From Mytilus californianus (taxonomy: Eukaryota): a stretch of 64,000 bases of DNA. Shown here piece after piece: positions 15,267 through 63,894 of this stretch. Location of the stretch: NCBI RefSeq assembly GCF_021869535.1, contig NW_026262723.1:92318001-92382000 (forward strand). Reading direction: 5' to 3'. The translations under genes and the position numbers were made by a program. Numbering within the stretch: position 1 is the stretch's first letter; each line of letters opens with the position of its first letter. A model generated the notes under the pieces. The model had not been told where the DNA came from, ran no database searches, and was given only the letters and a program-made list of their open reading frames with translations.

Positions 15267-16240
15267 AATACAGTTCTGTATTTTGGTAAAACATCTGATG
15301 ACAGACTTAAGACACCAAGAATATAAAAACAGTTCTGTATTTTGGTAAAACATCTGATGAAAGACTATGAATACAGTTCTGTAGCTTGGTCAAACATCTG
15401 ATGAAGGACTATGAATACAGTTCTGTATTTTGGTCAAACATCTGATGAAGGACTACGAATACAGTTCTGTATTTTGGTCAAACATCTGATGAAGGACTAT
15501 GAATACAGTTCTGTATTTTGGTCAAACATCTGACGAAGGACTATGAATACAGTTCTGTATTTTGGTCAAACATCTGACGAAGGACTATGAATACAGTTCT
15601 GTATTTTGGTCAAACATCTGACGAAGGACTATGAATACAGTTCTGTATTTTGGTCAAACATCTGATGAAGGACTATGAATACAGTTCTGTATTTTGGTCC
15701 AATATCTGACGAAGGACTATGAAAACAGTTCTGTATTTTGGTCAAACATCTGACGAAGGACTATGAATACAGTTCTGTATTTTGGTCAAACATCTGACGA
15801 AGGACTATGAATACAGTTCTGTATTTTGGTCAAACATCTGATGAAGGACTATGAATACAGTTCTGTATTTTGGTCAAACATCTGATGAAGGACTATGAAT
15901 ACAGTTCTGTATTTTGGTCCAATATCTGACGAAGGACTATGAATACAGTTCTGTATTTTGGTCAAACATCTGACGAAGGACTATGAATACAGTTCTGTAT
16001 TTTGGTCAAACATCTGACGAAGGACTATGAATACAGTTCTGTATTTTGGTCAAACATCTGATGAAGGACTATGAATACAGTTCTGTATTTTGGTCAAACA
16101 TCTGATGAAGGACTATGAATACAGTTCTGTATTTTGGTCAAACATCTGATAAAGGACTATGAATACAGTTCTGTATTTTGATAAATATCTGATGAAGGAC
16201 TATGAATACAATTTCGGTAATTTGGTAAAACATCTGATGA
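15267..16240. repeat. 44-bp minisatellite, ~22 copies
   Basis: Unit AATACAGTTCTGTATTTTGGTCAAACATCTGA(T/C)GAAGGACTATG, head-to-tail and highly homogeneous in the centre; a further degenerate copy follows at ~16398-16450. Confidence 0.95.
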
Positions 16241-28300: not shown

Positions 28301-31300
28301 TCCCATAGGGTCCAATGTTAAACTAAGTCCCCTGCTGGCGGCCATCTTGGATTATGGATCAGCTTCATAGTGACAACACTTGGTCAGCACCTCATAAGAA
28401 ACATTCATGCCATGTTTGGTTTCATTCCATGCAGTGGTTCTCTAAAAGAAGACATTTGTATGTATTTCCCATAGGTCCCATGTTAAACTAAGTCCCCCGC
28501 TGGCGGCCATCTTGGATTATGGATCAGCTTCAAAGTAACAACACTCGGTCAGCACCTCATAAGGAACATTCATGCCATGTTTGGTTTCATTCCATTCAGT
28601 GGTTCTCTAAAAGAAGACATTTGTATGTATTTCCCATAGGGTCCAATGTTAAACTAAGTCCCCCGCTGGCAGCCATCTTGGATTATGGATCGGCTTCAAA
28701 GTAACAACACTCGGTCAGCACCTCATAAGAAACATTCATGTCATGTTTGGTTTCATTCCATTCAGTGGTTCTCTAAAAGAAGACATTTGTATGTATTTCC
28801 CATAGGGTCAAATGTTAAACTAAGTCCCCTGCTGGTGGCCATCTTGGATTATGGATCAGCTTCATAGTAACAACACTTGGTCAGCACCTCATAAGGAACA
28901 TTCATGCCATGTTTGGTTTCATTCCATTCAGTGGTTCTCTAAAAGAAGACATTTGTATGTATTTCCCATAGGGTCGTATGTTAAACTAAGTCCCCCGCTG
29001 GCGGCCATCTTGGATTATGGATCGGCTTCAAAGTAACAACACTCGGTCAGCACCTCATAAGAAACATTCATGCCATGTTTGGTTTCATTCCATTCAGTGG
29101 TTCTCTAAAAGAAGACATTTGTATGTATTTCCCATAGGGTCCAATGTTAAACTAAGTCCCCTGCTGGTGGCCATCTTGGATTATGGATCAGCTTCATAGT
29201 AACAACACTTGGTCAGCACCTCATAAGGAACATTCATGCCATGTTTGGTTTCATTCCATTCAGTGGTTCTCTAAAAGAAGACATTTGTATGTATTTCCCA
29301 TAGGGTCCCATGTTAAACTAAGTCCCCCGCTGGCGGCCATCTTGGATTATGGATCAGCTTCAAAGTAACAACACTCGGTCAGCACCTCATAAGGAACATT
29401 CATGCCATGTTTGGTTTCATTCCATTCAGTGGTTCTCTAAAAGAAGACATTTGTATGTATTTCCCATAGGGTCCTATGTTAAACTAAGTCTTCCGCTGGC
29501 GGCCATCTTGGATTATGGATCGGCTTCAAAGTAACAACACTCGGTCAGCACCTCATAAGAAACATTCATGCCATGTTTGGTTTCATTCTATTCAGTGGTT
29601 CTCTAAAAGAAGACATTTGTATGTATTTCCCATAGGGTCCTATGTTAAACTAAGTCCCCCGCTGGCGGCCATCTTGGATGATGGATCCGCTACAAAGTAA
29701 CAACACTTGGTCAGCACCTCATAAGGAACATTCATGCCATGTTTGGTTTCATTCCATTCAGTGGTTCTCTAGAAGAAGTTCAAAATGTAAAAAGTTTACG
29801 CCGACGACGGACGACGCCGGACGACGGACGACAAGTGATGAGAAAAGCTCACTTGGCCCTTCGGGCCAGGTGAGCTAAAAAGGAAAAAAATAAAATCCCC
29901 CTCCCCAAATTTTTTGGACCCCCTTATGATTCATCACCCCCAAACTCAATCCCAGCCTTCCCTTTGTGGTATGGTACCTTGCAGTACAATTTCAGAGAGA
30001 TCCATACGCTTAAACACAAGTTATTGTCTGGAAACTAGAAAAATGTGTTTTTTGGCCCCTTTTTGGCCCCAAATTCCTAAACTTTTAGGGCAATTACCCC
30101 CAAACTCAAACCCAGCTTTCCCTTTGTGATATGGAACCTTGTAGTACAATTCCAGAAAGATCCATACACTTACACACAACTTATTGTCATGAAACTAGAA
30201 AAATGCTTGTTTTTTGCCCCTTTTTTGGCCCCTAATTCCTAATATTTTGAGGCAATTACCCCCAAAATCAATCCCAGCATTCCTTTTGTGATATGGAACC
30301 TTGTGGTACAATGTCAGAGAGATCCATACACTAACACACAAGTTATGTCTGGAAGTTACAAAAATGCTTATTTTTGGCCCCTTTTTGGCCCCTAATTCCT
30401 TAACTGTTGGTACCAAAACCCCCAAAATCAATCCCAACCTTCCTTTTGTGGTATTGAACCTTATGGTAAAATCTCATAGAGATCCATTCACTTAAACTAA
30501 AGTTAGAGTGCGAAAACCAATGTGTCTTCGGACGACACCAGACGACGACGACGACAACAACGACGACGACGACGCCAACGTCATACCAATATACGACCGC
30601 AAAAATTTTTGCGGTCGTATAAAAATCAGTTTTTTAGGGCCAAAACTATGAGTTAGTGAACCAACTCCTTTCACAATTGCAATACCAGGAATATCACCCT
30701 TTGATTACTGTAGAGTGTGTTTTTTAATCAGAATAATGAATCTATTTTAACAATTTTAAAACATGAATGAAGTAATTATGGTTGTGTTTATTTGTAACAA
30801 ATAATCTTTCAGAAACCTTTGTCTACCTGTAGTGATGATGATGAAATTTAAGGTATTATCAATTTGATGTAAGGTCAAATGTTCTTCATGAGAGTTAAAA
30901 GAACACTTTATAAATCTCATGTTCTGAAGCACTTTTCTGGATTCACCTTCACAAGGAATGATAAAACTTCAAAATTTGTAAGTCATAGATGTACTATAAT
31001 CTCCAAGCCAGTCCAAGGGGCACCTGCACATAAAGTTATATGTCACTCTTTGAGAACTGGCTGTGGATATTTTTATTCAGATGTTGGGTTGCTATCTCAT
31101 TCATGTATAACCTACATCTTTTTTATCCATATGGACACTCAGCATATCCAATTAGTCTCTTTTGGGGATAAATTAGTCACATTTAACTTTATTTAGAAGT
31201 AAAATTAGTATTACATTTTTTAAAACAACAAATTTTAATAATTGGAGAATGTGTCCATGGGGCACAGATGATGCCCCCACTTGCATATAACGTTATGAAG

Positions 31301-34300
31301 GGGCATAAACCAAGAGGTTAAAGTGACGCCACCCAAATTCAAACTTGATCTGTGTTATGTGGTAATAATCATTGTGTATAAGTGTCATAACATTTGGTTG
31401 AGGCAAACTAAAGTTAGAGAAAGGAAACCAATTTTGGGACAATCATATGGACGTACAGAGGGACAAGGTTACACTTAATGCCCCTTCTGATGCGGCGGGG
31501 CATATAAATATGAAATATTGAAAGAACATTTTTCAGTATAAATGAGCTTGTATTTCTTTCGGTTTGTACACTGAAAATATAAAGACCTAAATAGAGAGAA
31601 TTATTATAATAAGTTTAAATTTGATACCTGTGATTCTAGACTTGTCTTGTTCTGACCATTCTTGTTGCTTTCTTGGGCTCTGTTTTACTTCTGTGTCAAA
31701 TAGCAACTGTGATAACTCCTAAAGATAGAAAGCATGTCTGAAGTGATCAAGCTTTTGGCAGTTGTCTATAAAATTTATTAAAACATTATGATGTACAAAT
31801 CTACTGCTATGCATTCAATAATTATGTTTGTAAGTTTTTCTTCATTTTCATGAGAGCAAGTTCAGTGGGCACATGCCCTAAAGATCTTTCTGTATTTCTG
31901 TTAATTGTAACAAAAGTTATTGAAATCTTTAATTCCATCTGAATTTCTTGCAAACACTATATTAACTTAACAAAATTTGCCCCCAATGCATATTATGATG
32001 TTGAAATATTAACTTTATGAATACTCATTTTTTTATAATTTCTTCGGGGTGAACATATTATAAACCAAAATCTTCAATAGAATCTCTTCTGTGTTCAACA
32101 TCCCTTGACAAACCCTTTTAGGTGAAAATATTTCGTTGCCCATTTCAGTCATTAAGCTTTTATTGTTTATTGTTATTTAAGGTTTTTTGTTTTTACCTTT
32201 TAAATTTGCTAGTTGCACTTTTTCTCATTTTTAGAAAATTTAATTCCTATAACAATTCCTAGTATGAACATTAATTTGGATGTAACTTACAGATAAAATT
32301 ACATGCTTAGTCGATCTAAAAGTTGTTACAGTCAGAAACAATATTTGGGACATATTACATTTCTGTGCCAATTATCCAACCAATGTTATACTTCCTTCTG
32401 GAGAGGTATCTATTTGATACATGTTACAGTACCTGATCTATCTGTCTAACACATGTTACAGTACAAGTGCTATCTGTCTAACACATGTTACAGTACCTGA
32501 GCTATCTGTAACACATGTTACAGTATCTGTGCTATCTGTCTAACACATGTTACAGTACCTGAGCTATCTGTCTAACACATGTTACAGTACCTGAGCTATC
32601 CGTCTAACACATGTTACAATACCTGAGCTATCTGTCTAACACATGTTATAGTACCTGTTCTATCTGTCTAACACATGTTACAGTACCTGAGCTATCTGTC
32701 TAACACATGTTACAATACCTGAGCTATCTGTCTAACACATGTTACAATACCTGAGCTATCTGTCTAACACATGTTATAGTACCTGAGCTATCTGTCTAAC
32801 ACATGTTACAGTACCTGTGCTATCTGTCTAACACATGTTACAGTACCTGTGCTATCTGTCTAATACATGTTACAGTACCTGTGCTATCTGTCTAACACAT
32901 GTTACAGTACCGGTGCTATATGTCTAACACATGTTGCAGTACCTGTACTATCTGTCTAACACATGTTACAAAACCTGTGCTACACGTCTTATCCATGTTA
33001 CAGTACCTGTGCTAACCTGTCTAACACATGTTACAAAACCTGTGCTATCTGTCTAATACATGGTACAGCATATGTCCTATATCTCTGATACATGTTACAG
33101 TACCTGTGCTATCTGTCTAACACATGTTACAGTACCTGTGCTATCTGTCTAACACATGTTACAGTACCTGTGCTATATGTCTAACACATGTTACACTACC
33201 TTTGCTATCTATCTAACACATGTTACAAAACCTGTGCTACATGTCTTATACATGTTATAGTACCTGTGCTATCTGTATACATGTTACAGTACCCGTGTTA
33301 TCTGTCTAACACATGTTACAGTACCTTTACTATCTATCTAACACATGTTACAGTACCTGTACTATCTATCTAACACATGTTGCAGTACCTGTGCTATCTG
33401 TCTAACACATGTCACAAAACCTTGCTACATGTCTGATACATGTTACTGTACCTGTGCTATCTGTCTAACACATGTTACAGTACCTGTGCTATCTGTCTAA
33501 CAGCTTTATTTGGTACATTGCCATGCAGTGGATCTTCTGGACCACTATATTCTGAAAATTCAAAATCATACAAGTCTTGATAGCATCTGTGCTATCTGTG
33601 GTTATTCTTAATAAACCAATGGTATGTAATCAAGTATGACTGCCAATATAATAGCAGGGTTTTCCATTCATTTTGGCCTAACAAGAACAATAATAATAAT
33701 TGTTGCGCGCAAAATAATTCAATAAGTAAAATATGCACCCATATTTTTTTTGCTGATAACGATTGAACGGTCAATTTGGCCGGCGGCCGGTTCTTAGGGT
33801 AAACACTGATAGTGTAAAACAACATAATTGCTATTATCAGGTTGAGTATTTCGGGCTTATTTAAAGTAATTACAAGCATTATTTGGTACATTAATGATTA
33901 TCATTCTTTATTTGTACTTGTGTTGTTGTTTTTTGGTTATCTATTATACTGATATTATAGAGGTAAGTTATTTTTCTGTATTGATGTTTATAATAAATTC
34001 TTGTTTTTACTCTTCTTCAGATGACAGCTGGACAAACAGTCACTATGATACATAGGGCATCTACATCCCTAAATCTTTAAAATCTCAATATAATCTTTTT
34101 TTTTACTTACTTGTAGCTTCTCTGATGCCATGAGAAGTCTTCATCAACCCAAGTCTGAATTCTGCTGGTCCATTCTCTACTATGTACTTTAGCAATTTCA
34201 GCACCTAAACATAAATAAACTATGTATCAAAGGATGTAGCCTCTAAAATGAAGTATATATTAACCAAAAATATATTTTATGTACATGATACATTATTATA

Positions 34301-42400: not shown

Positions 42401-45010
42401 CCCGTTGTAATAAAGCCATGGGGGTTCTACAACATACCCATACAGATAAAGATACATGCAGATATGCACACGTAAAGCACTCACGTCTTGGATTTATAGA
42501 AGTTTACAATGAACTTGTGGTCAAATCAATTTGGAATTTAGTACATTTTCATTATGAAAAAAAAAAAAAAAAGCATTTATCAAATAAGAGTTGTGATCCA
42601 GATTTTACTGCTTACTGAATATGGAAATGTAATAGTACGAGCGGAGCATGGTAAAGTAAGTCTAAGAAACCAGTTAAATAAATTGCAACTTAAAAAAATC
42701 CTTTTTAGGCTTTGTATGTGCATTTCATACATGTATGTCTTTATTTCATTATTCTCATCCATCCCTAGAAGTATAAATTCTACATAAACATTTTCCCGTA
42801 TTCACATGTACTTTATCAATTTCAATGTGCATACAAAATTCCTTTATAATCCGAAATACCACACGATTACGTATACATGTATTTCACCTTAGCACATGTA
42901 TCGTAGGACAAGCCAGAAAACTGTCCCTCCTCTCCTAAAACACAAGTTCAATAATATAGAAATAATAAGATGCGACAAGCAGTAGAGCAAACAGTTATCG
43001 TGTCAAAGATGTTATTGAAAAAAATGTATGACAAAAATATAAAAGTATAAACAACTCATGACTGGAGGGAAATGAAGAAACGTTTACCGGACAATCACAT
43101 GATGAATTAATTCAACTACTGATAAAAGATGTTTACGCACTTGATATTCAATGTTATAGCTCCAGGCCCGTGTCTTATACAAAATAATAAAATATTTCAT
43201 TCTGATGTCAAGTCATATAAAGTGTAAAGACCCTTCGCTTCGATCATTAAAATAAATGTGTCATCAAAAAAGTTTAAGCCATGATTGTTCTAATTAAAAC
43301 ATATAGCCCATATAGGATTAAATCAAATAACTAATGGCAATTAATATGTATCTGACAAACTAATAAGAAATGCTCTAAATGGTACATATTGATTAAAATT
43401 TACTGTTAATGATTTATAATATTTTTTTATTGTTATAGCTCGACACCCTGTGATAAATACAGGATGAGAAAAACATCAAACAAGACCAATGCCGTGTCTC
43501 GGCTTGCGTTGTATCGTGCTGTTTGGAAGAACATATAACAGTGCTATAAAGATTGTATAAAAATTTAATAATAAGTTAAAGTTGCAACCAATCAAAATTC
43601 ACTTTCAGAAGTTTGCTCCTTTCCCACATGTGTTCAATCTGTGTGCAAAGTTTGAATAATGTTGAAGGCAATAAATTTGAAATATAGTTGGAAAAACTTG
43701 GTACCCCTATAATACTCAATGACAAAAATGATTAAGTTCTACACAACGGAAAACTCAAAATAATAATTCAATGCTGTCCAAGATTTTAGCATAGATGGGT
43801 ATTACATCTATGGTTTGAGCTAGGCGCACATTCTCAACCTATTTGCTATTACTGAGCAAAGTTTAAATAATGTCAACGGAAAGGTGTTAGAGCTACGTAA
43901 TTATGACAGAAACTAGCCTACCGTGGATCATGTGTGTTTCCTACAGACGGACGGAATAGAGTGGTAACTATACATGCTGTCACCTCTGGTAAACAGTAAT
44001 TAAACCCCTTCAGTGTGATCTGCAAATTCTGTCATGATAAAAGGCGACAAACTTGGACTGCCACTATAGAAAACTGAAGGAGACAAAAAATATTACCTGG
44101 CAAAAGAGTAATTGTAATGGTTCTTTTACACACAAAAAGGCGACTCTCCAAATACGAGGCATAGGATTTTACGTCCCAAAGTTGCGTAAATACTAGTTAA
44201 CAACATGCACAACAATTAAAACGGATACCCCCTACTGCCTGATGGGAGAAGTACAGAATACATTATTTCTATACCCAGTCAATTTTGATCAAGTTTGCCT
44301 ATAATTAGTTATGCAATGATTGCTCTTAATAAGGTAGTCATTCAAGTATGACATTGGATTCTAAGTCGTTCCTGTCCAGAAAATTTTCTAAAGATGCACA
44401 TTGGGTCCAATTTGACATTGCTGTAAATTGTTTTCTGCTTAATATATAGAAAGTAGCAGTAGCTATATCTTCATTCGCCGAGATGTGAGGACAACGTAAT
44501 TTTCAATTCCTCCTGTTCAATCTACTATCTCTATTTCATTATAGTCGACTGATATATGATTAATAAATCTCATAAATAGGTGTAAACATACAGATATTTC
44601 AATTTCTAGGTCAATTTGTAATAGCCTGTCCAATCTATAATATGATTACTGCAAAATGACCTGTCTACGCTTATTAACCTAGAAAGGACTATGAGAATAT
44701 TATGTTATTTTGTCGTGTAATGATCGTTAATGCTCTTTAATCACAGCAGTAGCTGGTTATAATCACCTCGAGGTTTCTATAATTTTACGGTACATGGTCA
44801 AGATATAACAATTTAAATGAAAAAATAATTAAATACACATTTCATACATACTTAATGCTTGTAATACTACCTACATTTCACTTCTTAGGTCAGATGACCA
44901 AGTTTACCCCTACGTACAACATTATTTTATATTAACTTAGGTCTGTCCTTCTTTTCTGTCTGTGAAGTATTTTGTAACATTTTGTGGAACTTTTTTGGAA
45001 TATACTAAAC

Positions 45011-46045
45011 ATGGGTTCTAATTATAATCTAACTCTACAGTGGAATCAAGATTATTACGACAAACTTCTTCCGAGTGTTTTTCTTCAAGGTGTTATCTTC
45101 CTATTTGGATTTATTGGAAACATAATTGTTCTTATGGTATATTTCTTTCGAATGAAAGCAAATCGAGACGACCGCTATTTCATTCCGATCTTGGCAGTTT
45201 TTGACCTAGTAGCTGGTACAGTGGCATCTGTGTTTTACGTATTGGAATCAATATATTTTGTAGATTTTCCATCAACAGGACTCTGTAAAGGTCTTCTTTT
45301 TGCAATGACAAGCACTTCCAGTTTGTCGGCATTGCTTCTTATAGCCATTGCCGTCCAAAGATATCTGAAAATATGCAAGCCACTAGCAGACCAAATGGAC
45401 GAAGCAAAACGAAAAATATGTCTTGCTGCTATAGTTATATTTTCTATTGTTAATTCGTGTCCTGTTTTACTCTTTTCTGGAAACAAATATATCGAAGGAG
45501 AATTCAACGGCTTGAACGTAACCGGATGGACGTGTTTTACTGGCTCTGGGAAATACCCAAACTATGAAGCAATTTATTATTACATTATATTCTTTTTAAT
45601 GGTAGCAAACATACTCACTATTGCATTTCTCTATATCCCTATTGGACTTCAGCTATATCGACATATAAAACTTAAGGATTTACGACGGCCAAGCATGGAC
45701 ATCGCTTCTACACAATTTGAATCTATATCGGAAAACAAACCAAGCGATGGAAGCACAGGTGAAATTACTCGCAAGAAATCTATGCACGCAAGCAAAATCA
45801 ATTTTAACAGCATGTTTTTGACCATTATTATACTCTATCTCGTTTCTTACACACCAACTTGTGTTTTTCTGATCATAAGTAAATTAAACCATGAACTTTG
45901 GTACAATATTTCTACAACAGAGATGATAATCTACTTTATTTTACAAAGATTCTATGTGATCAATCACGTGGTTAATCCGTTGATATACGGTTATTATGAC
46001 TTGAAATTTCGCAAAGATTTAGTCAGTCTTTTTCGTTGCTCATGA
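45011..46045 (+). CDS. Intronless class A (rhodopsin-like) orphan GPCR, CCK/orexin-receptor-like group, 344 aa
   Basis: Uninterrupted ORF from ATG 45011 (the track start at 44984 is a GTG); seven hydrophobic segments; GN (TM1), LAVFD (TM2), Cys at the top of TM3 and in ECL2 (WTCF), AVQRYLKICKP in place of DRY, SYTP (TM6), NHVVNPLIY (TM7), helix 8 DLKFRK, N-glycosylation sequon NLT. Confidence 0.93.
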   Translation: MGSNYNLTLQWNQDYYDKLLPSVFLQGVIFLFGFIGNIIVLMVYFFRMKANRDDRYFIPILAVFDLVAGTVASVFYVLESIYFVDFPSTGLCKGLLFAMTSTSSLSALLLIAIAVQRYLKICKPLADQMDEAKRKICLAAIVIFSIVNSCPVLLFSGNKYIEGEFNGLNVTGWTCFTGSGKYPNYEAIYYYIIFFLMVANILTIAFLYIPIGLQLYRHIKLKDLRRPSMDIASTQFESISENKPSDGSTGEITRKKSMHASKINFNSMFLTIIILYLVSYTPTCVFLIISKLNHELWYNISTTEMIIYFILQRFYVINHVVNPLIYGYYDLKFRKDLVSLFRCS

Positions 46046-50187: not shown

Positions 50188-53100
50188 ATGTTGGATAAAG
50201 CAGCAGTGACCGAATACGTAAAACTGGTAAGTCATTGTTTACAACTGTCTTCTTCTTTAAGTTTCAAGCGATCCTTCAATTATTGAAGATTATTCGCCGG
50301 GCTGTCCAATAAAAGTAAAAAAAAGAAGAAAAAACACATTTAAAGCCCACTTGTTTTGTGAATTTTTGGACTTTACCCGATTTGGTATTGAATCTGATGT
50401 CAGTTCGAAAGGGTGTCAGTTGCTAGTGCTTAAGTTTAGTACTGCCAATATCTGAACCATGATATATGATCATGATGATTGAATTTTATAAGTGTTCTTC
50501 TACTAAGGTGACAACTCCTGCAGGCACAATTGCCTGTTTTGGGGTTTTGATGGTAAGCCAACTTGTTTTGTAAATTTTGGGATTATGTTAGGTTGTTTTT
50601 GATTTAACGTTACAATTTTGATAGAATTGAGCATTCATAAAAGCACACTGAACAGTTATTTACAAAAAAATTGACACTGGTGCACCGCTAAGTGTTAGTT
50701 AAAAGAGTTAGATGGGATGACTACCGAATGTCATTGTATACATGACCTTGCACCATTAGAAGATGGGGATTTTCAGAGGAATAATCTTGCAGTTGACAAA
50801 GTTTATATATATAAATGTTATGTAGGGTAATAATCTCACTTTTTTGGTGATTCAATCCAGCATTTAATATTCTATGGTAATTTTCTTTGAAGATCATTAT
50901 TTGGTTTCTGTATCCACGTGCTTGAGGCATGGACACATTTTTAAAGTTTTAAGATTTATAGGTAAAAGAAAAATTAAAGTAGAGGGTTTCCATGTCCATT
51001 TTCATAGACATTGTACATTGTAGATATTATTATTGAATTTTGCTTGATCCCTAGGTAAGGTTTCCCATTTGAGATGGGGAAAAAAACCAACCATAGACTT
51101 AAGTGGTACATTTGTAAAGATGAAGGTTTTATGCACATTTAGGATTATAGTCATCAGTTGTTCATATAACCCTGCATCTGTGTTCATCAATGCACAAAGA
51201 AACAATGTAGCATGATTAACATCGTTTAAAGTAATTCCAATAAAATCAGTGATGATAGGGACTTGAAATTCAATGTCAGGTGTGAACTTTTGCTCTGTCA
51301 TGTCTGTGTTCATGACTGTGACTTAGAGATGAAGACCAGCAACAATAGTCAGTCAGGGGTACTACTTGTACAAGTAATTTTTATTTACTTTAAGAAGTAA
51401 ATATAAATATACTTATATAAGTAAATTTGTAGGATACATTGTACTTATACAAGTGTATTTTATTTACTTGTATAGGTAAAAAAAAATTGGGCTTAGTTAT
51501 GTCCCTTAGACATTCAGATTTTTTTACTTATACAAGTAAAAAAGTCATCCTATCTTCTTTTCTTGAATTCTTTGGACTTCTTTGCTCTAATAGAATTTTT
51601 AATTGTCTGTCCTTTGCAGATGTCTTTATTAATCATTTATGTGTAATTTCATGGACAATGAAAATCTCCTTTGTCTGTTATCTTCAGAACACTGCCCATT
51701 TACAAGCCCCCAAGGGGCAATTTTTGAAGGCCTTGCGCAAATACTTAAGATCTTTGCTCAATCAGTTTCTTTGTTGAATTAATGAGAAGAAACATTGAAC
51801 TATAATCAAAAATTATGAGCTAACCTGAGAAAAATTGTTAAAGGCATGTTTTACATCTCAAAACTTGAGAATTTTTGTGGGACTGTAAAAAAAATTACTT
51901 ATACAAGTAAATTTTTGAGAAAATTAAGGGGAGATTATTCAAACATTATAATTAACTTATATAAGTATATTTTATTTACTTCTTCAAGTAAATAAAGATT
52001 ACTTGTACAAGTAGTACCCCTGACTGATAGTACTGTTCCTTGGCTTTAGATTTTGTCGAGTATGTGTAGGGATTTTATATCATGAATTACTTCTTTTCCA
52101 TTCCATTGCATGGGTTGAATAAACACCATATTCCTTCTTTTCAACAAATAAAACATTTTGACAATTTACTTACTCATTGTCCATGTTTCAGTGGCCTGAT
52201 ATTGTCAGAAGGAATATATAGGTTTTCAAAGAAATAAATACCAGATGCTTGTTTGATAAATAAATATGTAAGACTCTAAAGTGCGATGGGGACGCTAAAA
52301 CGCGATGGTCACGCTAAAGTGCGATGGTCTACGCTAAATTGCGATGGTTTGATACTCTAAAGTGCGATGGTCTGGGCTATTCAATGGAATACGCTAAAGT
52401 TTGTTGCCTCAATACGCTAAAGTGCATTTTTCCGCCAAAGTGCGTTTGATCGCAAATGTATGGACGTTAGCAACGTCACATACCGTTTGTACACACAAAA
52501 ATGGACATGCCGGAAAACGAGAATGTTTGTCTATATGAAGGGTTTTTATTAGACAAGAAAAGAAAGAAGAGAGAAACAAATGATTCCAATCCGGATTATT
52601 TTTGGACGGCACTGGAAGAGGTTAACTTTATTTGTAAAAAGAAATTTGATCAAAACCGCTGGAGTTCCAAAAAAAAATTAAAAAAATTTAGAAACTCCTT
52701 CTATGTTTGTAATCCCATGTCATGTACTTGCGTAATTCTAATTGAATTATTCTAAATAAAACATCTTTTTTTACAATATCGTTCGTCATTTCTGTTAAAG
52801 AGATGGATATTCGTTAACTAGACAGTAACCTAACGACTACAGGTGTAGTATCATAATATGATTGCCAATGAGACAACTCTCCATCCAAGACCAAATGTCA
52901 TTAATGTAAACAACTATAGGTTAACTCATGGCCTTTAACAGGAAGCATTGGCTTAAACCTCATATAATTAAAGTATTCTATAAAGATCAAATGGCCTCAA
53001 AACGACCAGTGTAAAACATTTCAAATGAGAAAAAAACTGCCTGATTTCTATACAAAACAATGAACGAAAAACAAATATGGAATAAAGCAACAAACGACTA

Positions 53101-56100
53101 CCACTGAATTACAGGTTCCTGGCATGAGACAAGTTCATAAAGTATATACTAGCTACTGCAATGTAACCATTACACTTTTTATACGACCGCAAAAATTTTG
53201 CAGTCGTATATTGGTATGACGTTGGCGTCGTCGTCGTCGTTGTCATCGTCGTCCGGCGTCGTCCTGTGTCGTCCGAAGACACATTGGTTATCGCACTCTA
53301 ACTTTAGTTTAAGTGAATGGATCTCTATGAAATTTTACCATAAGGTTCAATACCACAAAAGGAAGGTTGGGATTGATTTTGGGGGTTACGGTACCAACAG
53401 TTAAGGAATTAGGGGCCAAAAAGGGGCCAAAAATAAGCATTTTTGTAACTTCCAGACATAACTTGTGTGTTAGTGTATGGATCTCTCTGACATTGTACCA
53501 CAAGGTTCCATATCACAAATGGAATGCTGGGATTGATTTTGGGGGTAATTGCCTTAAAATTTTAGGAATTAGGGGCCAAAAAAGGGGGAAAAAACAAGCA
53601 TTTTTCTAGTTTCATGACAATAACTTGTGTGTAAGTGTTTGGATATTTCTGAAATTGTACTACAAGGTTCCATATTACAAAGGGAAAGCTGGAATTGAGT
53701 TTGGGGGTTATTGCCCGAAACGTTTAGGAATTGGGGGCAAAAAAACACATTTTTCTAGTTTCCAGACAATAACTTGTGTTCAAGTGTATGGATCTCTCTG
53801 AAATTGTACTGCAAGGTACCATACCACAAAGGGAAGGCTGGGATTGAGTTTGGGGGTGATGAATCATAAGGGGGTTCAAAAAATTTGGGGGGGGGGATTT
53901 TTTTTTTCTTTCCTTTTTTTTCTTTTTTTCCTTTTTTTTTTTTTTTAAATTTTCCATTTTAAGTTGGTTATTTCTGATTTATATTTAAAAGCAAATAATA
54001 ATGATATGGTAGGAGATACACACCAAACAGGATGTGTAAATTATTATATAATAAGTATTGTGCAATAGCAAGAAATCTTCAATTGCACAGTATTGCGCAA
54101 TAGCAAGAAATCTTTAATTGCACAGTATTGCGCAATAGCAAGAAATATCCAATAGCACAATATTGCGCAATAGCAAGAAATTGTCAATTGTGCAGTATTG
54201 CACAATAGCAAGAAATATTCAATTGCACAGTATTGTGCAAAAGAAGATACTTCGTATAAATTGCTTATTTCTTGACCAATTTCAATGGGGTTTTATTCTT
54301 GAATTCTTGTTCTTCTTTAATATGCTGAATCTAACCGTGTATTAAGTTTTTGGATTTTGGGCCCCGTTTTTAAATTGGTCCACATTGAGGTCCAAAGGGT
54401 CCAAAATTACCGGTAAACTTTGTTTGATTTCATCAAAAATTGAATTATTGGGGTTCTTTGATATGCCGAATCTAACCGTGTATTTAGATTCTTAATTTTT
54501 GGTTCCGTTTCCAATTTGGTCTACATTAAGGTCCAAAGGGTCCAAAATTAAACTTAATTTGATTTTAACAAAAATTGAATTCTTAGGGTTCTTCGATATG
54601 CTGAATCTAAACATGTATTTAGATTTTATACGCCCGTTTACGGGACGTATTATGGTATACCGTTGTCCGTCTGTCCGTCCGTCCGTCTGTCCGTCCGTCT
54701 GTCCGTCGTCAACATGTCGGACATTAACTCAAAAATGTTTTTACCAATTTGCATAAAACTTTGGTGAATTGTTTATAACTATTGACGTGAGCTCCCTTTC
54801 ATTTTTTATAAAATTTAGATTTTACGTTTCCGAGTTATGGGGTTTTATTCATTAAAAAAAAGGGGGATTTTACAGTTTTTGGACAATAAGTCAAGAATGC
54901 TTTCACCAACTTGCAAGAAATTGTGGTGAATTGTTTATATCTATTGACATGAGCTCCCTTTCGATTTTTATAAATTTAAGATTTTACGTTTCTGAGTTGC
55001 AGGGTTTTATTCATAAAAAAGGGGGGATTTTCCAGTTTTCGGACAAAAACTCAAAAATGCTTTCAGCAATTCTTATGAAACTTTGGTGAATTGTTTGTAT
55101 GTATTGATGTAAGCTCCCTTTAGAGTTTTATAAATTTTACATTTTACATTTCTGAGTTATGGGGTTTTATTCATTAAAAAAAGTGGTGATTTTCCAGTTT
55201 TCAGACAATAACTCAAAAATGCTGTCACCAATTCTCATGAAACTTTGGTGAATTGTTTATATCTATTGATGTAAGCTCCCTTTTTATTTTCATAAATTTC
55301 TATTATGACATTGAGAATTAATTGAACTTTATTTGTTTATAGTCTGACAACAGATTTACTAAGTATTGCACAACAGCCAGAAATCTTTAATTGAATATAA
55401 ATTCAATTCATATAACCTATTTCAAGTTCTTTGACTACATTTATTCAGAAACCTATAATATGTCAAATATTTAATTACAATCCAAATTCAGACCTGAATC
55501 AAGCTTGAATATTGTGTCCATTTTTGCCCCAACTGTTCAGGGTTGGACCTCTGCGGGCGTATCTAGCTGCGCTCAGCGAAGCAGTTTATTGATTATGGGC
55601 CCAGTTTTCAAGTTGGTCCAAATCAGGGTCAAAATTTAACTTTGTTTGATTTCAACAAAAATTGAATATATGGGGTTCTTTGATATGCTGAATCTAACCA
55701 TGTATTTAGATTTTTGATTTTTGGGCCCCGTTATCAACTTTGTCGACATTGAGGTCAAAAGGGTCAAAAATTAAACTTTGATTTCATCAAAAATTGAATT
55801 CTTGGGGTTCTTTGATATGCTAAATCTAACCATGTATTTAGATTTTGGATATTGGACCATAATAGGTGAATGTCCAATTTAAAATTTTTAAGTTCTTAGA
55901 CCACATTCATTCTGTGTCAGAAACCTATGCTGTGTCAAATATTTAATCACAATCCAAATTCAGAGCTGTATCAAGCTTGAATGTTGTGTCCATACTTGCC
56001 CCAACTGTTCAGGGTTCGACCTCTGCGGTCGTATCAAGCTGCGCCCTGCGGAGCATTTTATTAAATAACTATCGTCATTTAAATAAAAATAAGAGAATGT

Positions 56101-59100
56101 GGTATTGTCAATGATACAACTATCCACCCAAGACCAAATGTCGGTGATGTATGCAACTAATAAACGTACAGCCTTTAAAGTGGAGCCTTGGTCCACGCTG
56201 CATAGCAAGCTATATATGGCCACACAATAAACAATGTAAAACAATTCAAAAGAGAATGACAACAGCTTGAATTGAAAAGAAAACAATAACCGAAAAACTA
56301 CTAGGAACACAGCAACAAACGAAAACCATTGCCTGAACCCCAATCCCGTTACACCATCGAACTGTGACTTTAGCGTGTTATACCATCGCACTTTGGCGTG
56401 TTATACCATAGCACTTTAGCGTGTCATATAATCGCATTAAAAAAAATAAAGAACAATCGCACTTTAGCGTTTGACACCATCACACTTTAGCGTTTGACAC
56501 CATCACACTTTAGCGTAGACCATTGCACTTTAGCGTGACCATCACACTTTAGAGTACCATCGCACTTTAGAGTCCTACAAATATACACCATATAATGAAG
56601 ACGGCGATGTTCTTGTTAGGATTATTTAGATGCAAAATTTCTCGGAACCGACAATTGTTTTAAATAGATTCTAACGTATATATAAATATTGTTTGTAATT
56701 GTACTTATTTTGTAGGTTATAGAAGATGAAGTAGAAAGAGGAACAGATGACCAATTTTTATGTGACAGTGATTTAAACACTTTACTGGTGGATGATAAAA
56801 GCAGCTTAAAACCAAGGGAGACAATTGTTGGTTACCCTACTTACCCATTATACAGAGAAATAGGAAATATGCTTTATCAGTGGTTAGAAAACAAGTATGA
56901 ACATAATATATAATTTGTTAGTTCGTATTAATTGCTTGTGATGAAAATATTAATTCTTTTTAGAGTTTGTACAATTATATCTCTCATATCAAACAGATAA
57001 ATGATGCAATATTATCAGATTGCGTACATTGTATATAGAATTATGAAATACAAATAAAATTTCAGATAAATATTATTTTTAATATGGTACTATTAGAACT
57101 GATTGATTGATTAATGTTTGCTAACTTATGCTGCATCAGCACTAAAAGGCTATATCAGGGCGTGCTTGAGATTTATGATTGCAGTTATTGTTAATTAGAT
57201 ACAGATCTCTCAATGTTAGAAAAATTCAGACTGATACACAATTTTATATTTGCATGTACATCATTTAGCAGGTCTGAATACAATACTCAAAATCAGGTCT
57301 TGTAAAAGTCTATTCACTACTTACACAGTACTTCAAAAATGCTAAAATAGTACCAATAAAATAATTATTAATATTTATAAGGTATGAAAATAAAACATAA
57401 AGTAAAAATCAACAAAACCCCTTATAAACAACTGGATTTTTGTTGTTTTTGAAAAAAGTAAATCAACAGTCTAATATAAATACAGATCCCGTGTCCATGC
57501 TTTGTTCTATTTACTTGTCGTAAAATTAGTACGCAAACAAGTGAAATATTATTATATATGTCTGCCTTATATTTTTTTAATGTGTACATCACCACAATAA
57601 AAACCAATGATCCTGGTGAAACAACATAAATTAATAATATTAGAAATATATAATATACAATACTTATTCATCTGAATGTTATGATTACAGAGAATGTCCA
57701 GTTGTAGATCTACCTAAGTATGATTTGTTGGATGAGAAAGTGTATGTGGAATCAAGGTAAGTTTTTGCTGTATCTACATCAAAGAAAGACTTAATTGGCA
57801 TGAAGGGGGTAGGTGTGTGCCAAAATACATAAATTAAAATTGAATTTCCCCATGATTAAAAAATATGTTTTATCTTTTGAAAAAAGCAAATAATATTGTG
57901 TGCTATGAATTTAGAATTACAGTCTTCAGTCATGGAAGCATGTGAAAAAAAAAGTAGTTGATACTTTGAAAATATCCCTGTACCACCTCAATCAAATGTC
58001 AACCCACTGACCAATGTCAGCCAAGAGGATATGTTTTGTGTACCACCTGAATCAAAACAACCCACTGACCGATGTCAGCCAAAAGGATATATTTTGTGTA
58101 CCACCTGAATCAAATGTCAACCCACTGACTGATGTCAGCCAAGAGGATATGTTTTGTGTACCACCTGAATCAAATGTCAACCCACTGACCGATGTCAGCC
58201 AAAAGGATATATTTTGTGTACCACCTGAATCAAATGTCAACCCACTGACTGATGTCAGCCAAGAGGATATATTTTGTGTACCACCTGAATCAAATGTTAA
58301 CCCACTGACCAATGTCAGCCAAAAGGATATGTTTTGTGTACCACCTGAATCAAATGTCAACCCACTGACTGATTTCAGCCAAGAGGATATGTTATGCATA
58401 CCACCTGAATCCAATGTCAACCCACTGACGGATGTCAGCCAAAAGGATATATTTTGTGTACCACCTGAATCAAATGTCAATTCACTGACTGATGTCAGCC
58501 AAGAGGATATATTTTGTGTACCACCTGAATCAAATGTTAACCCACTGACCAATGTCAGCCAAAAGGATATGTTTTGTGTAACACCTGAATCAAATGTCAA
58601 CCCACTGACTAATTTCAGCCAAGAGAATATGTTATGCATACCACCTGAATCCAATGTCAACCCACTGACTGATGTCAGCTAAGAGGATATATTTTGCATT
58701 TGAAAATGATTATGTACTAACTGTTGTACATGAAATGGATAAATTTGAATATAAGAGACAGCTGTTTACAAAAAGGAAATTGAAAACACAAAAATCATCA
58801 AAAGAAAAGACAAAATATATTTAAGTTGATTACATATTACTAATTTTCTCATTAGTCCATACCAAAAACAAGATCTCCACAAATAAATGTACATTCACAG
58901 TACCTTGTATATGTATGTCATGTGCATATGAACCAGTTTTTAGTATTTTAATTTAGAGATTGATGGTTATATTGGTAGTTGAAATAAGGTTTTATAATAA
59001 GTATTTTCCAAATCTGATTATTACCAAAAGTTAATCGGATAAAAAGATTAAAACACAAATGTGTATTTTGTTTTACAGGACAGCAACATTTGCCACCATT

Positions 59101-60006
59101 ACACCATTGTTGGATGGTATGACTTCACTGTGGGATCACTGGGGTGAGGAGGAAAGGAAATACAGAATCAGATATATTTTGACAGTAAGCCTTTATAATT
59201 TAAACTTTTTAAAGAATGATAAAGCTGAGCAAAAATAAAGGTCACTAAGATTTTTTTCTATTTTTACAATTTTTTATTAACTGTGTATTGTATTAGTGTT
59301 AAATTTCAATGTAATTGTAAAATAAGGAATTGATTTGACACTATGAAGTTAGAAGAATTATCTTGGTCACACTAGTGAGGTTTCTTATCCTTTAATGAAT
59401 AATCCATAGGAAAAAGCATCCTCCCTAGCCAAATATTACAATCTGGCCCCCTCCGTTAGCAAAGATAAGGTATTTAGTATAAATAAAGTGTATTCCTTTT
59501 AAGAAGGTTTGAAAAAGACCAGAATTATTAATTTGTTTACAATCAGCAATTAAAAGGGTGGTTAGGGGTTAAAGTAAATGTTCATGCAGTTGGGTAATTT
59601 GCTAATTCTTTTTAATTCTGAGATAATTATTTTAAATGATAAATAAGAGATGCAAGTTTGAGTGTTCTATATAGAGACTGTTCTGATTATTATTCATAAA
59701 TTTATTCATGAAAACTGATAAAACAATGACTTTAGGATTTATAATATTGACTTTTTGTTTACCATGGTTTAGTACATTGTATCTGGATCAAAACTTTAGA
59801 TTCTTCGAAAGGTATTAATGATACTTGGTATTACTGTTGCCAACTGAAGAATGCTTGATGTAGATTGCTTTATTTATTATTCCCTTGAAACTTTGAAATA
59901 CTAAATGTTTTCAAAATTAATCAACTTTTACTCTACACGATAAAAACATAGTATATTTTTATACGACCGCAAAAAAATTTTGTGGTCGTATATTGGTATG
60001 ACGTTG

Positions 60007-60047
<41 letters not shown>

Positions 60048-63000
60048 CGGCGTCGTCGTCGTCCGGCGTCGTCGTCCGAATACATATTGGTTTTCGCACT
60101 CTAACTTTAGTTTAAGTGAATGGATCTTTTTGAAATTTGACCATAAGGTTAAATACCACAAAAGGAAGGTTGGGATTGATTTTGGGGGTTATGGTACCAA
60201 CAGTTAGGGAATTAGGGGCCAAAAAGGGGCCAGAAATGAGCATTTTCTAGTTTCCAGACAATAACTGTGGAACGGTGTATGGATCTCTCTGAAATTATAC
60301 TACAAGTTTCCATACCACAAAGGGATGGTTAGGATTTGCTTTGGGGGGTTATGGCTCAAACCGTTTAGGAATTAGGGGCAAAAAAGGGGGAAAAACATGG
60401 TTGTCCTGGTTAATGGACAAATACTTTAGTACAAAACATAATTTAAAGCAGTGTAAGGGAGATAAATCAAATACATCATTGAAATTATCTCCCTTACACT
60501 GCTTTTAAATTATGTATAAAGTAATGGTTAATGAACAATAAAGATAATCTAAAACAGTGTAAGGGAGGTAATCCAAATACAACGTTTTGGTTACTTCCCT
60601 GACACTGCTTTTAAATTATGTTTAAAGAAGTGCATATTTATAAAGGAAGACCAGTAAAAATATCTGCAAATGTTTTCATCTTTTTTTTTTACAAAAAAAT
60701 CCATATGAAAGATTTGACACTATATTTTTATTAATTCTATTATAAAATAGATTAAGTTAGCACTATGGTAAATTTAAATGGGTAATTATGGTTGCCAACT
60801 CCATTGGAAATTTGAATTGAGATTGTGACCATATCTTGAGGGAAAGAATTTTTTTGGGGGAAAAAGGGGGGGGGGGGGGATAAAAAGAAATTGTGGGGGG
60901 CCAATTTTTTCTCATTTCAGATTTCAGAAATTAAAAAGAATTATTCTTCAAATATTATTTTTTTTTCAAATTTCAAATATTGAAAAATTTCAAGAAGTAA
61001 TCTTTAATTGCACAGTATGGCGCATTAGATTTGTAAAATCTTTGATCACATTTATTTATTTGTTATGCCGAATCTAACAGTGTATTTAGATTTTTAATTT
61101 TGGGTCCAGTTTTCAAATTGGTCTACATTAATGTCCAAAGGGTCCAAAATTAAACTTTGTTTGATTTTAGCAAAAATTGAATATATGAGGTTCTTTGATA
61201 TGCTGAATCTAAACATGTATTTAGATTTTTGATTTTTGGCCCAGTTTTCAAGTTGGTCCAAATTGGGGTCCAAAATTAAACTTTGTTTGATTTCAACAAA
61301 AATTGAATATACGGGGTTCTTTGATATGCTGAATCTAACCATGTATTTAGATTTTTTATTTGTGGACCCCGTTATCTAATTGGTTCATATTGAGGTCAAA
61401 AGGGTCCAAAATTAAACTTTGTTTGATTTCATCTAAAATTGAATTCTTGGGGTTCTTTGATTTGCTGAATCTAAAGATGTGTTTAGATTTTTGATTATGG
61501 GCCCAGTTTTCAAGTTGGTCCAAGATAGGGTCCAGTATTTAAACTTTGTTTGATTTCAACAAAAATTGAATATATGGGGTTCTTTGATATGCTGAATCTA
61601 AACATGTATTTAGATTTTTGATTATGGGCCCAGTTTTCAAGTTGGTCCAAATTGGGGTCCAAAATTAAACTTTGTTTGATTTCAACAAAAATTGAATATA
61701 TGAGGTTCTTTGATATGCTGAATCTAACCATGTATTTAGATTTTTTATTTGTAGGCCCCGCTATCAAATTGGTTCATATTGAGGTCAAAAGGGTCCAAAA
61801 TTAAACTTTGTTTGATTTCATCGAAAATTGAATTATTGGGGTTCTTTGATATGCCAAATCTAACCGTGTTTTTAGATTTTTAATTTGGGTCCCGTTTTTT
61901 AAATTGGTCTTCATTGAGGTCCAAAGGGTCCAAAATTAAACTTAGTTTGATTTTAACAAAAATTGAATTCTTGGGGTTCTTTGATATGCTGAATCTAAAC
62001 ATGTGTTTAGATTTTTGATTATGTGCCCAGTTTTCAAGTTGGTCCAAGTTGGGGTCCAAAATTAAACTTTTTTTGATTTCAACAAAAATTGAATATATGG
62101 GGTTCTTTGATATGCTGAATCTAACCATGTATTTAGATTTTTTATTTGTGGACCCCGTTATCTAATTGGTTCATATTGAGGTCAAAAGGGTCCAAAATTA
62201 AACTTTGTTTGATTTCATCGAAAATTGAATTATTGGGGTTCTTTGATATGCCAAATCTAACCGTGTTTTTAGATTTTTAATTTGGGTCCCATTTTTTAAT
62301 TGGTCTTCATTTTGGTCCAAAGGGTCCAAAATTAAACTTAGTTTGATTTTAACAAAAATTGAATTCTTGGGGTTCTTTGATATGCTGAATCTAAACATGT
62401 GTTTAGATTTTTGATTATGGGCCCAGTTTTCAAGTTGGTCCAAGTTGGGGTCCAAAATTAAACTTTTTTTGATTTCAACAAAAATTGAATATATGGGGTT
62501 CTTTGATATGCTGAATCTAACCATGAATTTAGATTTTTTATTTGTGGGCCCCGCTATCAAATTGGTTCATATTGAGGTCAAAAGGGTCCAAAATTAAACT
62601 TTGTTTGATTTCATCAAAAATTGAATTATTGGGGTTCTTTGATATTCCAAATATAACCGTGTATTTAGATTTTTAATTTTAAGTCCCGTTTTTTAAATTG
62701 GTCTACATTAAGGTCCAAAGGGTCCAAAATTAAACTTGGTTTGATTTTAGCAAAAATTGAATTCTTGGGGTTCTTTGATATGCTGAATCTAAACATGTGT
62801 TTAGATTTTTGATTATGGGCCCAGTTTTCAAGTTTGTCCATGTTGGGGTCCAAAATTAAACTTTGTTTGATTTTAACAAAAATTGAATATATGGGGTTCT
62901 TTGATATGCTGAATCTAACCATGTATTTTGATTTTGGACATTGGACCATAATAGGTAAATTAAAAAAATTCAAGTTCTTAGACCACATTCTTTCTGTGTC

Positions 63001-63894
63001 AGAAACCTATGCTGTGTCAAATATTTAATAACAATCCAAATTCAGAGCTGTATCAAGCTTGAATGTTGTGTCCATACTTGCCCCAACTGTTCAGGGTTCG
63101 ACCTCTGCGGTCGTATCAAGCTGCGCCCCAGCGAAGCATTTTATTTTATTATGAATGTAGGTAGAATGAAGGTGAACTTTATATTAGGATACCAGTATAT
63201 ATGATAATACAGTTGTTTTAATTCTATTTTTTAATAGCTTTTAGGAAAGAGAGGAATATTAGATCTATTGGGCATTCGGAAGACTGTGGGAACAAAGGAG
63301 ATCTTGCCATGTTCCAGGAAAGTGTTGGAGGATTGTTTTGCAGCAAAACATTCGTAAGTTAAAAAAGTACTTTAAAGTACATTTTAAAAAAATTGTAAAT
63401 TTGTCAACAGTTTAGATAGATGTTATTATAAGAAAATGTGTACTTAAGTCAAACAAATGAAATGAATCTTCTTTAAAAAAAAACCTTTATATTGTTGCTA
63501 GTAAGTTCACGCTCATTTAAAGAGAGTATGGCAGTTACAATATAGCTTACCTTCTTCAAGATCCTTGAAACATTTTGATGGGATGGGGAAAAAATGGGAA
63601 AATAATTTATGCAGATATGAAAGCACTTATCTCCTGCTTTTTCTAATTTCCTTGTATAACATAACTGTGTGCATTTGCAAAGCCCTTATAGTTAAAAGTC
63701 TGAAGAAATCTAGATATAGAATATATACTTTCGTCAAAGTATTATGACATTTACATCAAGTTAATGAAAATCAACTTTCTATATTTATTTTGACAGGCCA
63801 AATTCAAGTTCCCAGCTGTCAGTTGGTGCCAGGGCATTAGCCAAGCACTCTCATAGAGATATGAGTACATCTTGGTGGGGTGTGTGTACTGGAA
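50188..63894 (+). CDS. Uncharacterised protein related to plant RNA-binding ASCH-domain proteins (N- and C-terminal regions); 3' end lies outside the window
   Basis: Exons 50188-50226, 56716-56894, 57691-57756, 59079-59184, 63238-63353, 63797-63894; GT-AG with consistent phases (0,2,2,0,2,1). MLDKAAVTEYVKLVIEDEVERG...GYPTYPLYREIGNMLYQWLENK...LLGKRGILDLLGIRKTVGTKEILPCSRKVLEDCFAAKHSPNSSSQLSVGARALAKHSHRDMSTSWWGVCTG. Family link recalled from motifs (YPLY, LLG...TxGT, GARALAKH..R...WG), not searched. Confidence 0.8.
51350..52026. mobile_element. 677-bp MITE with ~73-bp TIRs and 5-bp TSD ATAGT
   Basis: CAGTCAGGGGTACTACTTGTACAAGTAAT... at 51350 and its reverse complement ending 52026; ATAGT at 51345-51349 and 52027-52031. 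Confidence 0.9.
53176..56062 (-). mobile_element. Large Helentron-like element, copy B
   Basis: Reverse complement of copy A: hairpin ATACGACCGCAAAAATTTTGCAGTCGTAT, (GTC)n, same modules, end GCGGTCGTATCAAGCTGCGC...GAGCATTTTA. Confidence 0.85.
54624..55590. mobile_element. HINE-like element nested in copy B with ~160-bp internal units
   Basis: Hairpin ATACGCCCGTTTACGGGACGTAT, (CCGT)n, three to four units, inverted GCGGGCGTAT near the far end; splits GTATTTAGATTTTT/GATTATGGGCCC, which is contiguous in copy A. Confidence 0.8.
57979..58699. repeat. 60-bp tandem array (~12 units) in intron 3 of the ASCH-related gene
   Basis: Unit TGTACCACCTGAATCAAATGTCAACCCACTGACTGATGTCAGCCAAGAGGATATATTTTG; open on both strands (58014-58682 +, 58052-58660 -). 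Confidence 0.95.
59956..63143 (-). mobile_element. Large Helentron-like element, copy C, with an expanded internal satellite
   Basis: Same termini as copy B (ATACGACCGCAAAAAAATTTTGTGGTCGTAT ... GCGGTCGTATCAAGCTGCGC...AAGCATTTTA), long (GTC)n, a different central module and ~14 satellite monomers. Confidence 0.85.
61060..62940. repeat. 126-136-bp satellite, ~14 monomers, with ~397-bp trimeric higher-order repeat
   Basis: Spacings of the GGTCCAAAATTAAAC anchor: 126,136,126,127,136,135,126,136,134,126,136,136,126. Confidence 0.9.

Follow-up and report, generated by a model that had tools for sequence, protein, structure and literature searches.

A single-copy, nine-exon mussel gene belongs to an apparently undescribed eukaryotic family with a predicted Colicin-like BECR ribonuclease domain

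We analyzed a stretch of 64,000 nucleotides from Mytilus californianus (contig NW_026262723.1, positions 92,318,001 to 92,382,000 of the forward strand; here called the window), which holds the first six exons of a gene for a two-domain protein with a putative C-terminal RNase domain. Exon positions are given in the window with their strand, and those of exons 7 to 9, which lie beyond it, as contig positions. The coding part of exon 1 (50188..50226, +, amino acids 1 to 13) begins with a start codon at 50188 and is carried into exon 2 by loose ends of RNA contigs. Exon 2 (56716..56894, +, amino acids 14 to 73) encodes the N-terminal helical domain and was placed by the reading frame and by an RNA joint of 56894 to 57691, and exon 3 (57691..57756, +, amino acids 73 to 95) was placed by the frame and by RNA contigs. 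Exon 4 (59079..59184, +, amino acids 95 to 130), which has RNA loose ends on both sides, encodes a helical hairpin containing the site at which streptophyte homologues carry an ASCH domain. Exon 5 (63238..63353, +, amino acids 131 to 169), with an RNA joint of 63353 to 63797, encodes a linker with conserved R144, T146 and G148 and the start of the nuclease-like domain, and exon 6 (63797..63894, +, amino acids 169 to 202), placed by the same joint, encodes a predicted pre-alpha helix with K185, H186 and R189. The six exons have GT-AG borders and a single open frame of 201 codons. A sequence-only reading of the window had described a clean six-exon frame with three motifs and proposed completing the gene; the motifs were located on the + strand as described, the frame and splicing were confirmed, and the neighbouring genome stretch supplied exon 7 (contig 92385532-92385617, reached by RNA loose ends from exon 6), exon 8 (contig 92386269-92386305) and exon 9 (contig 92393313-92393407, ending in a stop codon), the last two placed by a match to a Mytilus trossulus protein. 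Exons 7 to 9 encode amino acids 202 to 273, comprising the core helix, four strands and a conserved tail, and the complete nine-exon gene encodes 273 amino acids.

The joint of exons 2 and 3 was read directly in RNA contigs of three of four public runs and that of exons 5 and 6 in all four, and continuity between exons 1 and 2, 3 and 4, 4 and 5, and 6 and 7 was traced through loose ends of RNA contigs. The joints of exons 7 and 8 and of exons 8 and 9 rest on a gap-free protein match to P0001, the product of M. trossulus LOC134725866, to which the mussel protein is 94% identical (17 differences in 273 amino acids); P0001 was used as the stand-in query for every whole-protein search and fold. 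All seven matches in the gene's own genome fell at one locus, indicating a single copy. In one raw RNA run, few reads matched the gene (2 and 5 of about 10 million). Only 4 of the 17 differences from P0001 lie within amino acids 158 to 273, and among homologues the nuclease domain averages 60% identity, compared with 26 to 47% N-terminally. A hydrophobic leader was not found, the peak 15-residue hydropathy being 0.87. The gene is therefore real, spliced, single copy and slowly changing; the single locus, the slow change, the better-conserved nuclease domain and the lack of a hydrophobic leader are housekeeping signs.

A profile of 86 homologues matched 6d7y_A at an E value of 8.9e-8, the next match being at 0.27 or worse, where rows for gasdermin-B were discarded as helix look-alikes. 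P0001 alone matched the same chain at 0.0018 and a second family profile matched it at 4e-8. The AlphaFold2 model of P0001 (pLDDT 95.7) exhibited a helical N-terminal domain and, C-terminally, a pre-alpha helix, a helix and four strands, with predicted elements H178-187, H203-219, E221-229, E233-240, E245-249 and E255-259. The sole Foldseek match at an E value of ≤0.001 was 6d7y (6e-4, target TM 0.85). With VIA-align, amino acids 161 to 260 matched 92 of 92 residues of 6D7Y (Z 12.5, root mean square deviation [rmsd] 1.9 Å); over the two structural comparisons, the identity to the toxin was 28 to 30%. Colicin D came next, once with Z 6.8 over 86 aligned residues (rmsd 2.8) and once with Z 6.2 over 82 (rmsd 3.3). 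These profile and structure matches agree with the earlier suggestion of a BECR-type toxin homologue in the C-terminal domain.

According to the available part of PMC9086364, 6D7Y is the CdiA-CT toxin of P. aeruginosa PABL017, a BECR tRNase with the key residue His3372 and a preference for tRNA-Gln and tRNA-Pro; the H3372A form is termed catalytic null (PMC12791740). Residues 3352 to 3443 are resolved on a 96-residue chain, and only the His at chain index 25 can be His3372. Since the chain numbering fits no other His, His3372 is the histidine of the Lys-His pair, and it aligns with H186. In the family alignment, K185 and H186 were invariant in 250 of 250 rows, so that the conservation expected of the KH residues was observed, and R189 was present in 249/250 rows, E237 in 251/252, R239 in 252/252, R247 in 249/251 and H227 in 244/250, with the near-invariant R189, R239 and R247 being candidates for the pocket. 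The topology by which Colicin-like BECR RNases are defined in the accessible text of bioRxiv 10.64898/2026.08.28.747851, a pre-alpha helix followed by alpha-beta1-beta2-beta3-beta4, was found in the predicted model, as were a conserved His on the pre-alpha helix and a Lys just before it (K185-H186); the characterised members of that group, according to the same text, mostly cut tRNA. The C-terminal end reads exactly W-x-H in 225 of 258 proteins (P0001 263-273 and homologues) and not in the bacterial forms described below. This tail is at the extreme C-terminus and may be disturbed by tags added there. When the N-terminal domain of Tegillarca P0083 was folded by itself (pLDDT 94.2), it had no Foldseek match at an E value of ≤0.001 and no clear structural match with VIA-align (best Z 4.2); these poor matches do not demonstrate a new fold.

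A family search gave 160 matches among 691 candidates and a second search gave 953 representatives at an E value of ≤0.001. The matches listed were the best 120 of the 160 and the best 150 of the 953, many rows being unnamed, together with those of further searches. Among the matches listed, the animals were molluscs, annelids, nemerteans, flatworms, echinoderms, a hemichordate, cnidarians and sponges, and the other members were choanoflagellates, Amoebidium, Mucoromycota, chytrid fungi, Physarum, Cavostelium, Pelomyxa, an oomycete, Mallomonas, green algae and streptophytes. Vertebrates, arthropods, nematodes and dikaryan fungi had no named match among the matches listed, with no dedicated test of absence. 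Pfam had no match on P0001 to P0004, NCBIfam had no informative match for the family, and no PADLOC model matched the nuclease part in six proteins. There was no family match in viral contigs or phages and none at an E value of ≤0.001 in BFVD; in the ESM Atlas the whole protein retrieved only unnamed eukaryotic clusters and amino acids 158 to 262 retrieved nothing. No description of the family was found in the literature searched, and BECR surveys outside that scope could mention it. The family is real, apparently undescribed and a form of a known nuclease kind.

Homology to plant ASCH-domain proteins, which the sequence-only reading had proposed together with shared N- and C-terminal blocks, was evident from the 53% identity of P0001 to Klebsormidium P0091 over the last 152 amino acids; the N-terminal block was also matched, weakly. 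The same reading saw no ASCH exon, and this held: ASCH had no match in the seven exons scanned (2 to 7 and 9) or in P0001, and an RNA contig of 1,148 nucleotides (run X1) had only 105 letters, those of exon 4, between exons 3 and 5, with equal length and depth in both RNA comparisons. In ASCH-bearing homologues, the N-terminal match to the profile breaks off at position 119 and starts again at 124, a gap that falls within exon 4 of the mussel gene. A hidden ASCH exon in the mussel gene was thus excluded by the exon scan, the contig spacing and the insertion point. The ASCH domain (about 100 amino acids, PF04266, nearest solved structure PH0355) was carried by 7 of 42 longer homologues, by 2 of 86 alignment members and, just under the cut-off, by 1 of 28 further proteins, and a homologue from the chlorophyte Edaphochlamys had no ASCH match. 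Five of the seven carriers were named (Klebsormidium, Mesostigma, Riccia, Closterium and "Mesen1"); all of these are streptophytes, Mesen1 presumably being Mesotaenium. The lack of ASCH, noted earlier for the animal protein, is not peculiar to it: the ASCH-less form is general in eukaryotes and bacteria, and among named carriers ASCH occurs in streptophytes only. The domain therefore looks, from sequence comparison, like a streptophyte insertion rather than an animal loss. ASCH is an RNA-binding domain, predicted in some cases to read modified bases (available parts of PMC7641849 and PMC4738411).

Toxin ends about 30% identical to the family were found on a 2,798-amino-acid haemagglutinin-repeat protein and on plasmid VENN cassette arrays. 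Of three CdiA-type ends compared, two have K-H and the third has K-Y, so that the RALxKH-like motif noted earlier for such ends was recovered in two and not in the third. A stand-alone bacterial form of 217 to 250 amino acids, new in this analysis, has the same two domains without a delivery domain, and its N-terminal domain is also common to the eukaryotic family (hhalign 99.9%, 193 columns). Besides the centre genome, 6 of the 300 genomes examined from the phylum of genome G001 carried it, as did 5 of 9 genomes of the class of genome G579, and it was present at 47 metagenome loci; two other phylum samples had it in 0 of 400 and 0 of 50 genomes. Delivery models in Pfam had no match on six stand-alone proteins, and loci L026 and L027 matched haemagglutinin and VENN models. 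K, H and R189 are kept in 45 of 45 stand-alone proteins, which lack the C-terminal tail; these residue counts cover 45 of 53 loci, the gene's open reading frame (ORF) being absent from the first neighbour table in 8.

A tree of 56 hand-picked rows and 110 columns was rooted on three toxins, and a larger tree held 243 of 267 sequences; 6D7Y was included in neither. In the 56-row tree, the 31 eukaryotic rows formed one clade (SH-aLRT 99) branching from among the stand-alone bacterial rows, and the 243-row tree was similar. The stand-alone form is placed between eukaryotes and toxins, with weak support for the inner order and an assumed root, and for these reasons neither the donor nor the direction of transfer is settled. 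On sequence grounds, the nearest non-eukaryotic relatives are stand-alone two-domain bacterial proteins, not toxins. Domestication of a toxin-like nuclease, as first suggested, would therefore be at most indirect. Three full-length "bacterial" matches in metagenome-assembled genomes from GTDB (L008 to L010) were set aside as eukaryotic contigs and probable contamination: L009 and L010 match in exon-sized pieces, and L008 contains a long CA microsatellite, with neighbours that look eukaryotic. A match on a Cronobacter plasmid (L011) spans a stop codon. Long fused forms were limited to 3 proteins among 7,993 scored candidates, none a bacterial toxin, which is weak evidence, and a metagenome scan with A2 gave no usable pattern.

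Neighbours of the stand-alone gene were counted at 53 bacterial loci, which fell into 20 groups when clustered by single linkage at 60% identity. DUF434-DUF5616 (COG2454) was present at 22 loci in 4 groups, a short-chain dehydrogenase at 16 loci in 8 groups, TatD at 17 loci in 1 group, RlaP at 6 loci in 2 groups, RtcB at 6 loci in 1 group, Rnl2 and R2K ATP-grasp each at 2 loci in 2 groups, and PNKP at 1 locus in 1 group. A repair gene (RtcB, RlaP, Rnl2, R2K or PNKP) lay within about 4 kb at 11 of 53 loci and in 4 of 20 groups, or 4 of the 9 groups represented by 5 kb or more of DNA. In the DNA examined, no repair gene was seen in the groups of high G+C content or in the genomes with G numbers. 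RlaP and RtcB have been tied to repair of ribotoxin damage (available parts of bioRxiv 10.64898/2025.12.29.696909 and PMC6514570), and the link between the bacterial homologue and RNA-repair genes is no more than suggestive. MoxR/bpX4 genes were also near many bacterial copies. In genomes G579 and G411, the homologue overlaps a HIT gene (L023 1101-3462; L024 1-3431) and lies, within a run of genes on one strand, between genes resembling those of tyrosyl- and isoleucyl-tRNA synthetases, named by reading their translations. A constant small partner gene was not found across the 53 loci; an ORF of about 106 amino acids lies downstream in 5 and is missing from close relatives. The dehydrogenase (about 457 amino acids, with a long N-terminal extension) lies directly 3' of the homologue (L054 4659-6044 and 15 further loci; 8 of 20 groups). 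The DUF434-DUF5616 gene, of NYN-type PIN kind (L065 3184-3990 and 21 further loci), usually lies immediately upstream in the same orientation, and the pair may form a module of two nucleases; DUF434 proteins have been described as NYN-type PIN-domain proteins, proposed to be tRNA/rRNA maturation nucleases and mostly monocistronic in bacteria (accessible part of PMC5499597).

Around the mussel gene itself, an ordinary intronless ORF for a rhodopsin-family seven-transmembrane receptor (44978-46045, +; PF00001, E value of 4.7e-27) lies about 4 kb upstream. Intron 3 contains a tandem array of about 11 copies of an approximately 60-bp unit (58011-58700), both strands of which stay open for more than 200 codons. 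Introns 1 and 4 are filled by long repeat elements (53170-56060 and 59940-63130) that themselves contain tandem arrays, with units of about 126 to 167 bp. Such elements recur at 27334-29778, 32350-33502 and 15267-16240; they are likely to be non-autonomous mobile elements. The end of exon 7 and its donor site are tandemly repeated in the next intron (L002 4119-4530).

The explanation that we favour, to which we give about an even chance of being correct, is that the protein is an intracellular, His-dependent Colicin-like BECR RNase that would act on tRNA-like RNA in turnover and quality control or in a cut-and-repair process. Within the cell, the C-terminal domain would cut a structured RNA, with tRNA the most probable substrate, rather than serve as an exported toxin. 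By analogy with known BECR RNase chemistry, His186 would take part in acid-base catalysis, K185, R189, R239 and R247 would hold the phosphate backbone, and a metal-independent cut would leave 2',3'-cyclic phosphate and 5'-OH ends, the kind rejoined by RtcB or PNKP/Rnl2 systems. More weakly, the helical N-terminal domain, standing in for an immunity protein, might restrain the enzyme or select its substrate, H227 (specific to eukaryotes) and the W-x-H tail might complete the pocket, and streptophytes might have added ASCH as an extra reader of RNA or modified bases.

Several observations weigh against this explanation. The predicted fold by itself does not fix the substrate. The upstream His of the toxin is Arg181 in the mussel protein (of 251 rows, 235 have Arg and 16 have Lys here), and the H227 position is Phe in 45 of 45 bacterial proteins, so that the pocket differs from that of the toxin. 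The role proposed for the N-terminal domain is a guess, given that the best structural match is only Z 4.2. A repair gene was not found at 42 of 53 loci or in 16 of 20 groups, many being on short contigs, and 7 of the 11 loci having one come from a single group of 22 related loci, these being raw counts with no background rate. The most widely shared neighbour, the short-chain dehydrogenase, is left unexplained, a barstar-like gene lies just upstream at two near-identical loci (L055 and L056), and repair genes beside a nuclease suit a ribotoxin-plus-repair module equally well.

Such a module would fit a latent ribotoxin of defence or stress, in which the N-terminal domain blocks the RNase until infection or stress, tRNA cleavage then stops translation, and bacterial ligases allow recovery. 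The closest characterised homologues do block translation, the repair and MoxR/bpX4 genes near many bacterial copies, the patchy bacterial occurrence (6/300, 0/400 and 0/50 genomes besides the centre genome), the adjoining barstar-like gene and the few RNA reads would all be compatible with it, and yet we consider it unlikely, as arms-race effectors would not be expected to be single copy, to change slowly and to form one eukaryotic clade, no PADLOC model matched the nuclease part of the six proteins, and no constant small partner gene was found, the 106-residue ORF being missing in close relatives. The association with several unrelated repair systems (RtcB, Rnl2, PNKP and RlaP) could instead mean that the protein opens or removes 2',3'-cyclic phosphates, or binds damaged ends for ligation or decay, without cutting intact RNA. 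Residues conserved in the family and not in the toxin (H227 and the W-x-H end, 225/258) could reshape the pocket to this end, and hydrolysis of cyclic phosphates is known for an RNase A/BECR-like CDI toxin (available part of PMC9086364). The catalytic K-H-x-x-R helix of the endonuclease is nevertheless retained unchanged, and the bacterial forms with repair neighbours are those without the tail and H227, making end processing rather unlikely. With the favoured RNase, these two readings would share RNA phosphodiester chemistry, which in our judgement is very probably the activity involved. The dehydrogenase, purine phosphorylase and HIT neighbours, and an overall identity to the toxin of merely 28 to 30%, could be accommodated if the toxin fold were reused in a non-catalytic RNA-binding adaptor or in an enzyme whose substrate is not RNA but, for example, a nucleotide metabolite; this is very unlikely given the invariant His, Lys, Arg and Glu at the toxin's conserved positions in 250 eukaryotic-type and 45 bacterial proteins and the ASCH fusion, which points to RNA.

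A bolder form of the favoured RNase reading, possible but doubtful, is that eukaryotes, before their major groups diverged, acquired a tRNA nuclease of the colicin D type from a bacterial module for RNA damage and repair, and that this nuclease would be a core enzyme so far missing from the picture of how eukaryotes survey their tRNA or cleave it under stress. A single copy would have persisted in animals and the unicellular organisms related to them, in early fungi, amoebae and stramenopiles, and in plants, and the enzyme would have escaped notice since it seems to be absent from the main animal and yeast models. For a widespread eukaryotic family without a Pfam model, the analysis provides a candidate catalytic residue, a predicted fold, a likely substrate class and a link to a stand-alone bacterial form found near RNA-repair genes. 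If the protein is active on tRNA, a colicin D-type RNase would join EndoU, RNase T2 and RNase A in the eukaryotic toolkit and would be a candidate for producing tRNA fragments in invertebrates, protists and plants.

Compared with known systems, the mussel protein is closest to CdiA-CT 6D7Y, on which all 92 resolved residues superpose at 30% identity and with which it shares the positions of His3372, the Lys before it, the Arg three residues on and the strand motifs E-x-R and G-x-R. It differs in lacking the haemagglutinin/VENN delivery region, in having an extra 150-residue helical N-terminal domain and a conserved C-terminal tail, in the Arg at the toxin's upstream His, and in being encoded by a slowly changing, single-copy gene with introns. 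Like CdiA and other polymorphic toxins it has a C-terminal domain homologous to CdiA-CT, but no N-terminal delivery region or export signal was found by Pfam on P0001 to P0004 or by hydropathy, and no immunity gene was noticed in the ORF list around the mussel gene, where no further search was made. The family shares with the plant "RNA-binding ASCH domain proteins" (Klebsormidium P0091, Riccia P0217 and Mesostigma P0158) both the C-terminal and N-terminal blocks, and they are members of the same family; the mussel protein lacks the insert of about 100 amino acids between the blocks, and the database name of the plant proteins covers this insert only and misses the nuclease-like domain. With Ntox35, a predicted BECR toxin with the residues "H, KH" (available part of PMC3482391), it shares the K-H on the N-terminal helix, as does 6D7Y, whereas the first His is replaced by Arg or Lys in the family. 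Pfam Ntox models, presumably including one for Ntox35, had no match to the 86 members (E value of ≤5) or to three toxin-bearing proteins.

EndoU, RNase T2 and RNase A-like enzymes provide a precedent for the BECR fold in eukaryotic cellular enzymes (available parts of PMC3482391 and bioRxiv 10.64898/2026.08.28.747851), but they belong to other BECR groups, and none was among the best 50 VIA-align matches or the Foldseek matches listed. The main text of the 2026 BECR classification (bioRxiv 10.64898/2026.08.28.747851), in its available part, names no such eukaryotic family, although its supplementary tables might list one, and no matching eukaryotic BECR family is listed in the accessible part of PMC3482391. 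Colicin D and the Colicin-like group share with the mussel protein the pre-alpha helix, the helix, the four strands and the Lys-His on the pre-alpha helix, although identity to colicin D is only 6 to 12% (Z 6.2 to 6.8) and the mussel protein is no bacteriocin. The mussel protein is thus not a polymorphic toxin, an ASCH protein or an Ntox35 protein, and it has the structural features by which the Colicin-like group is recognised.

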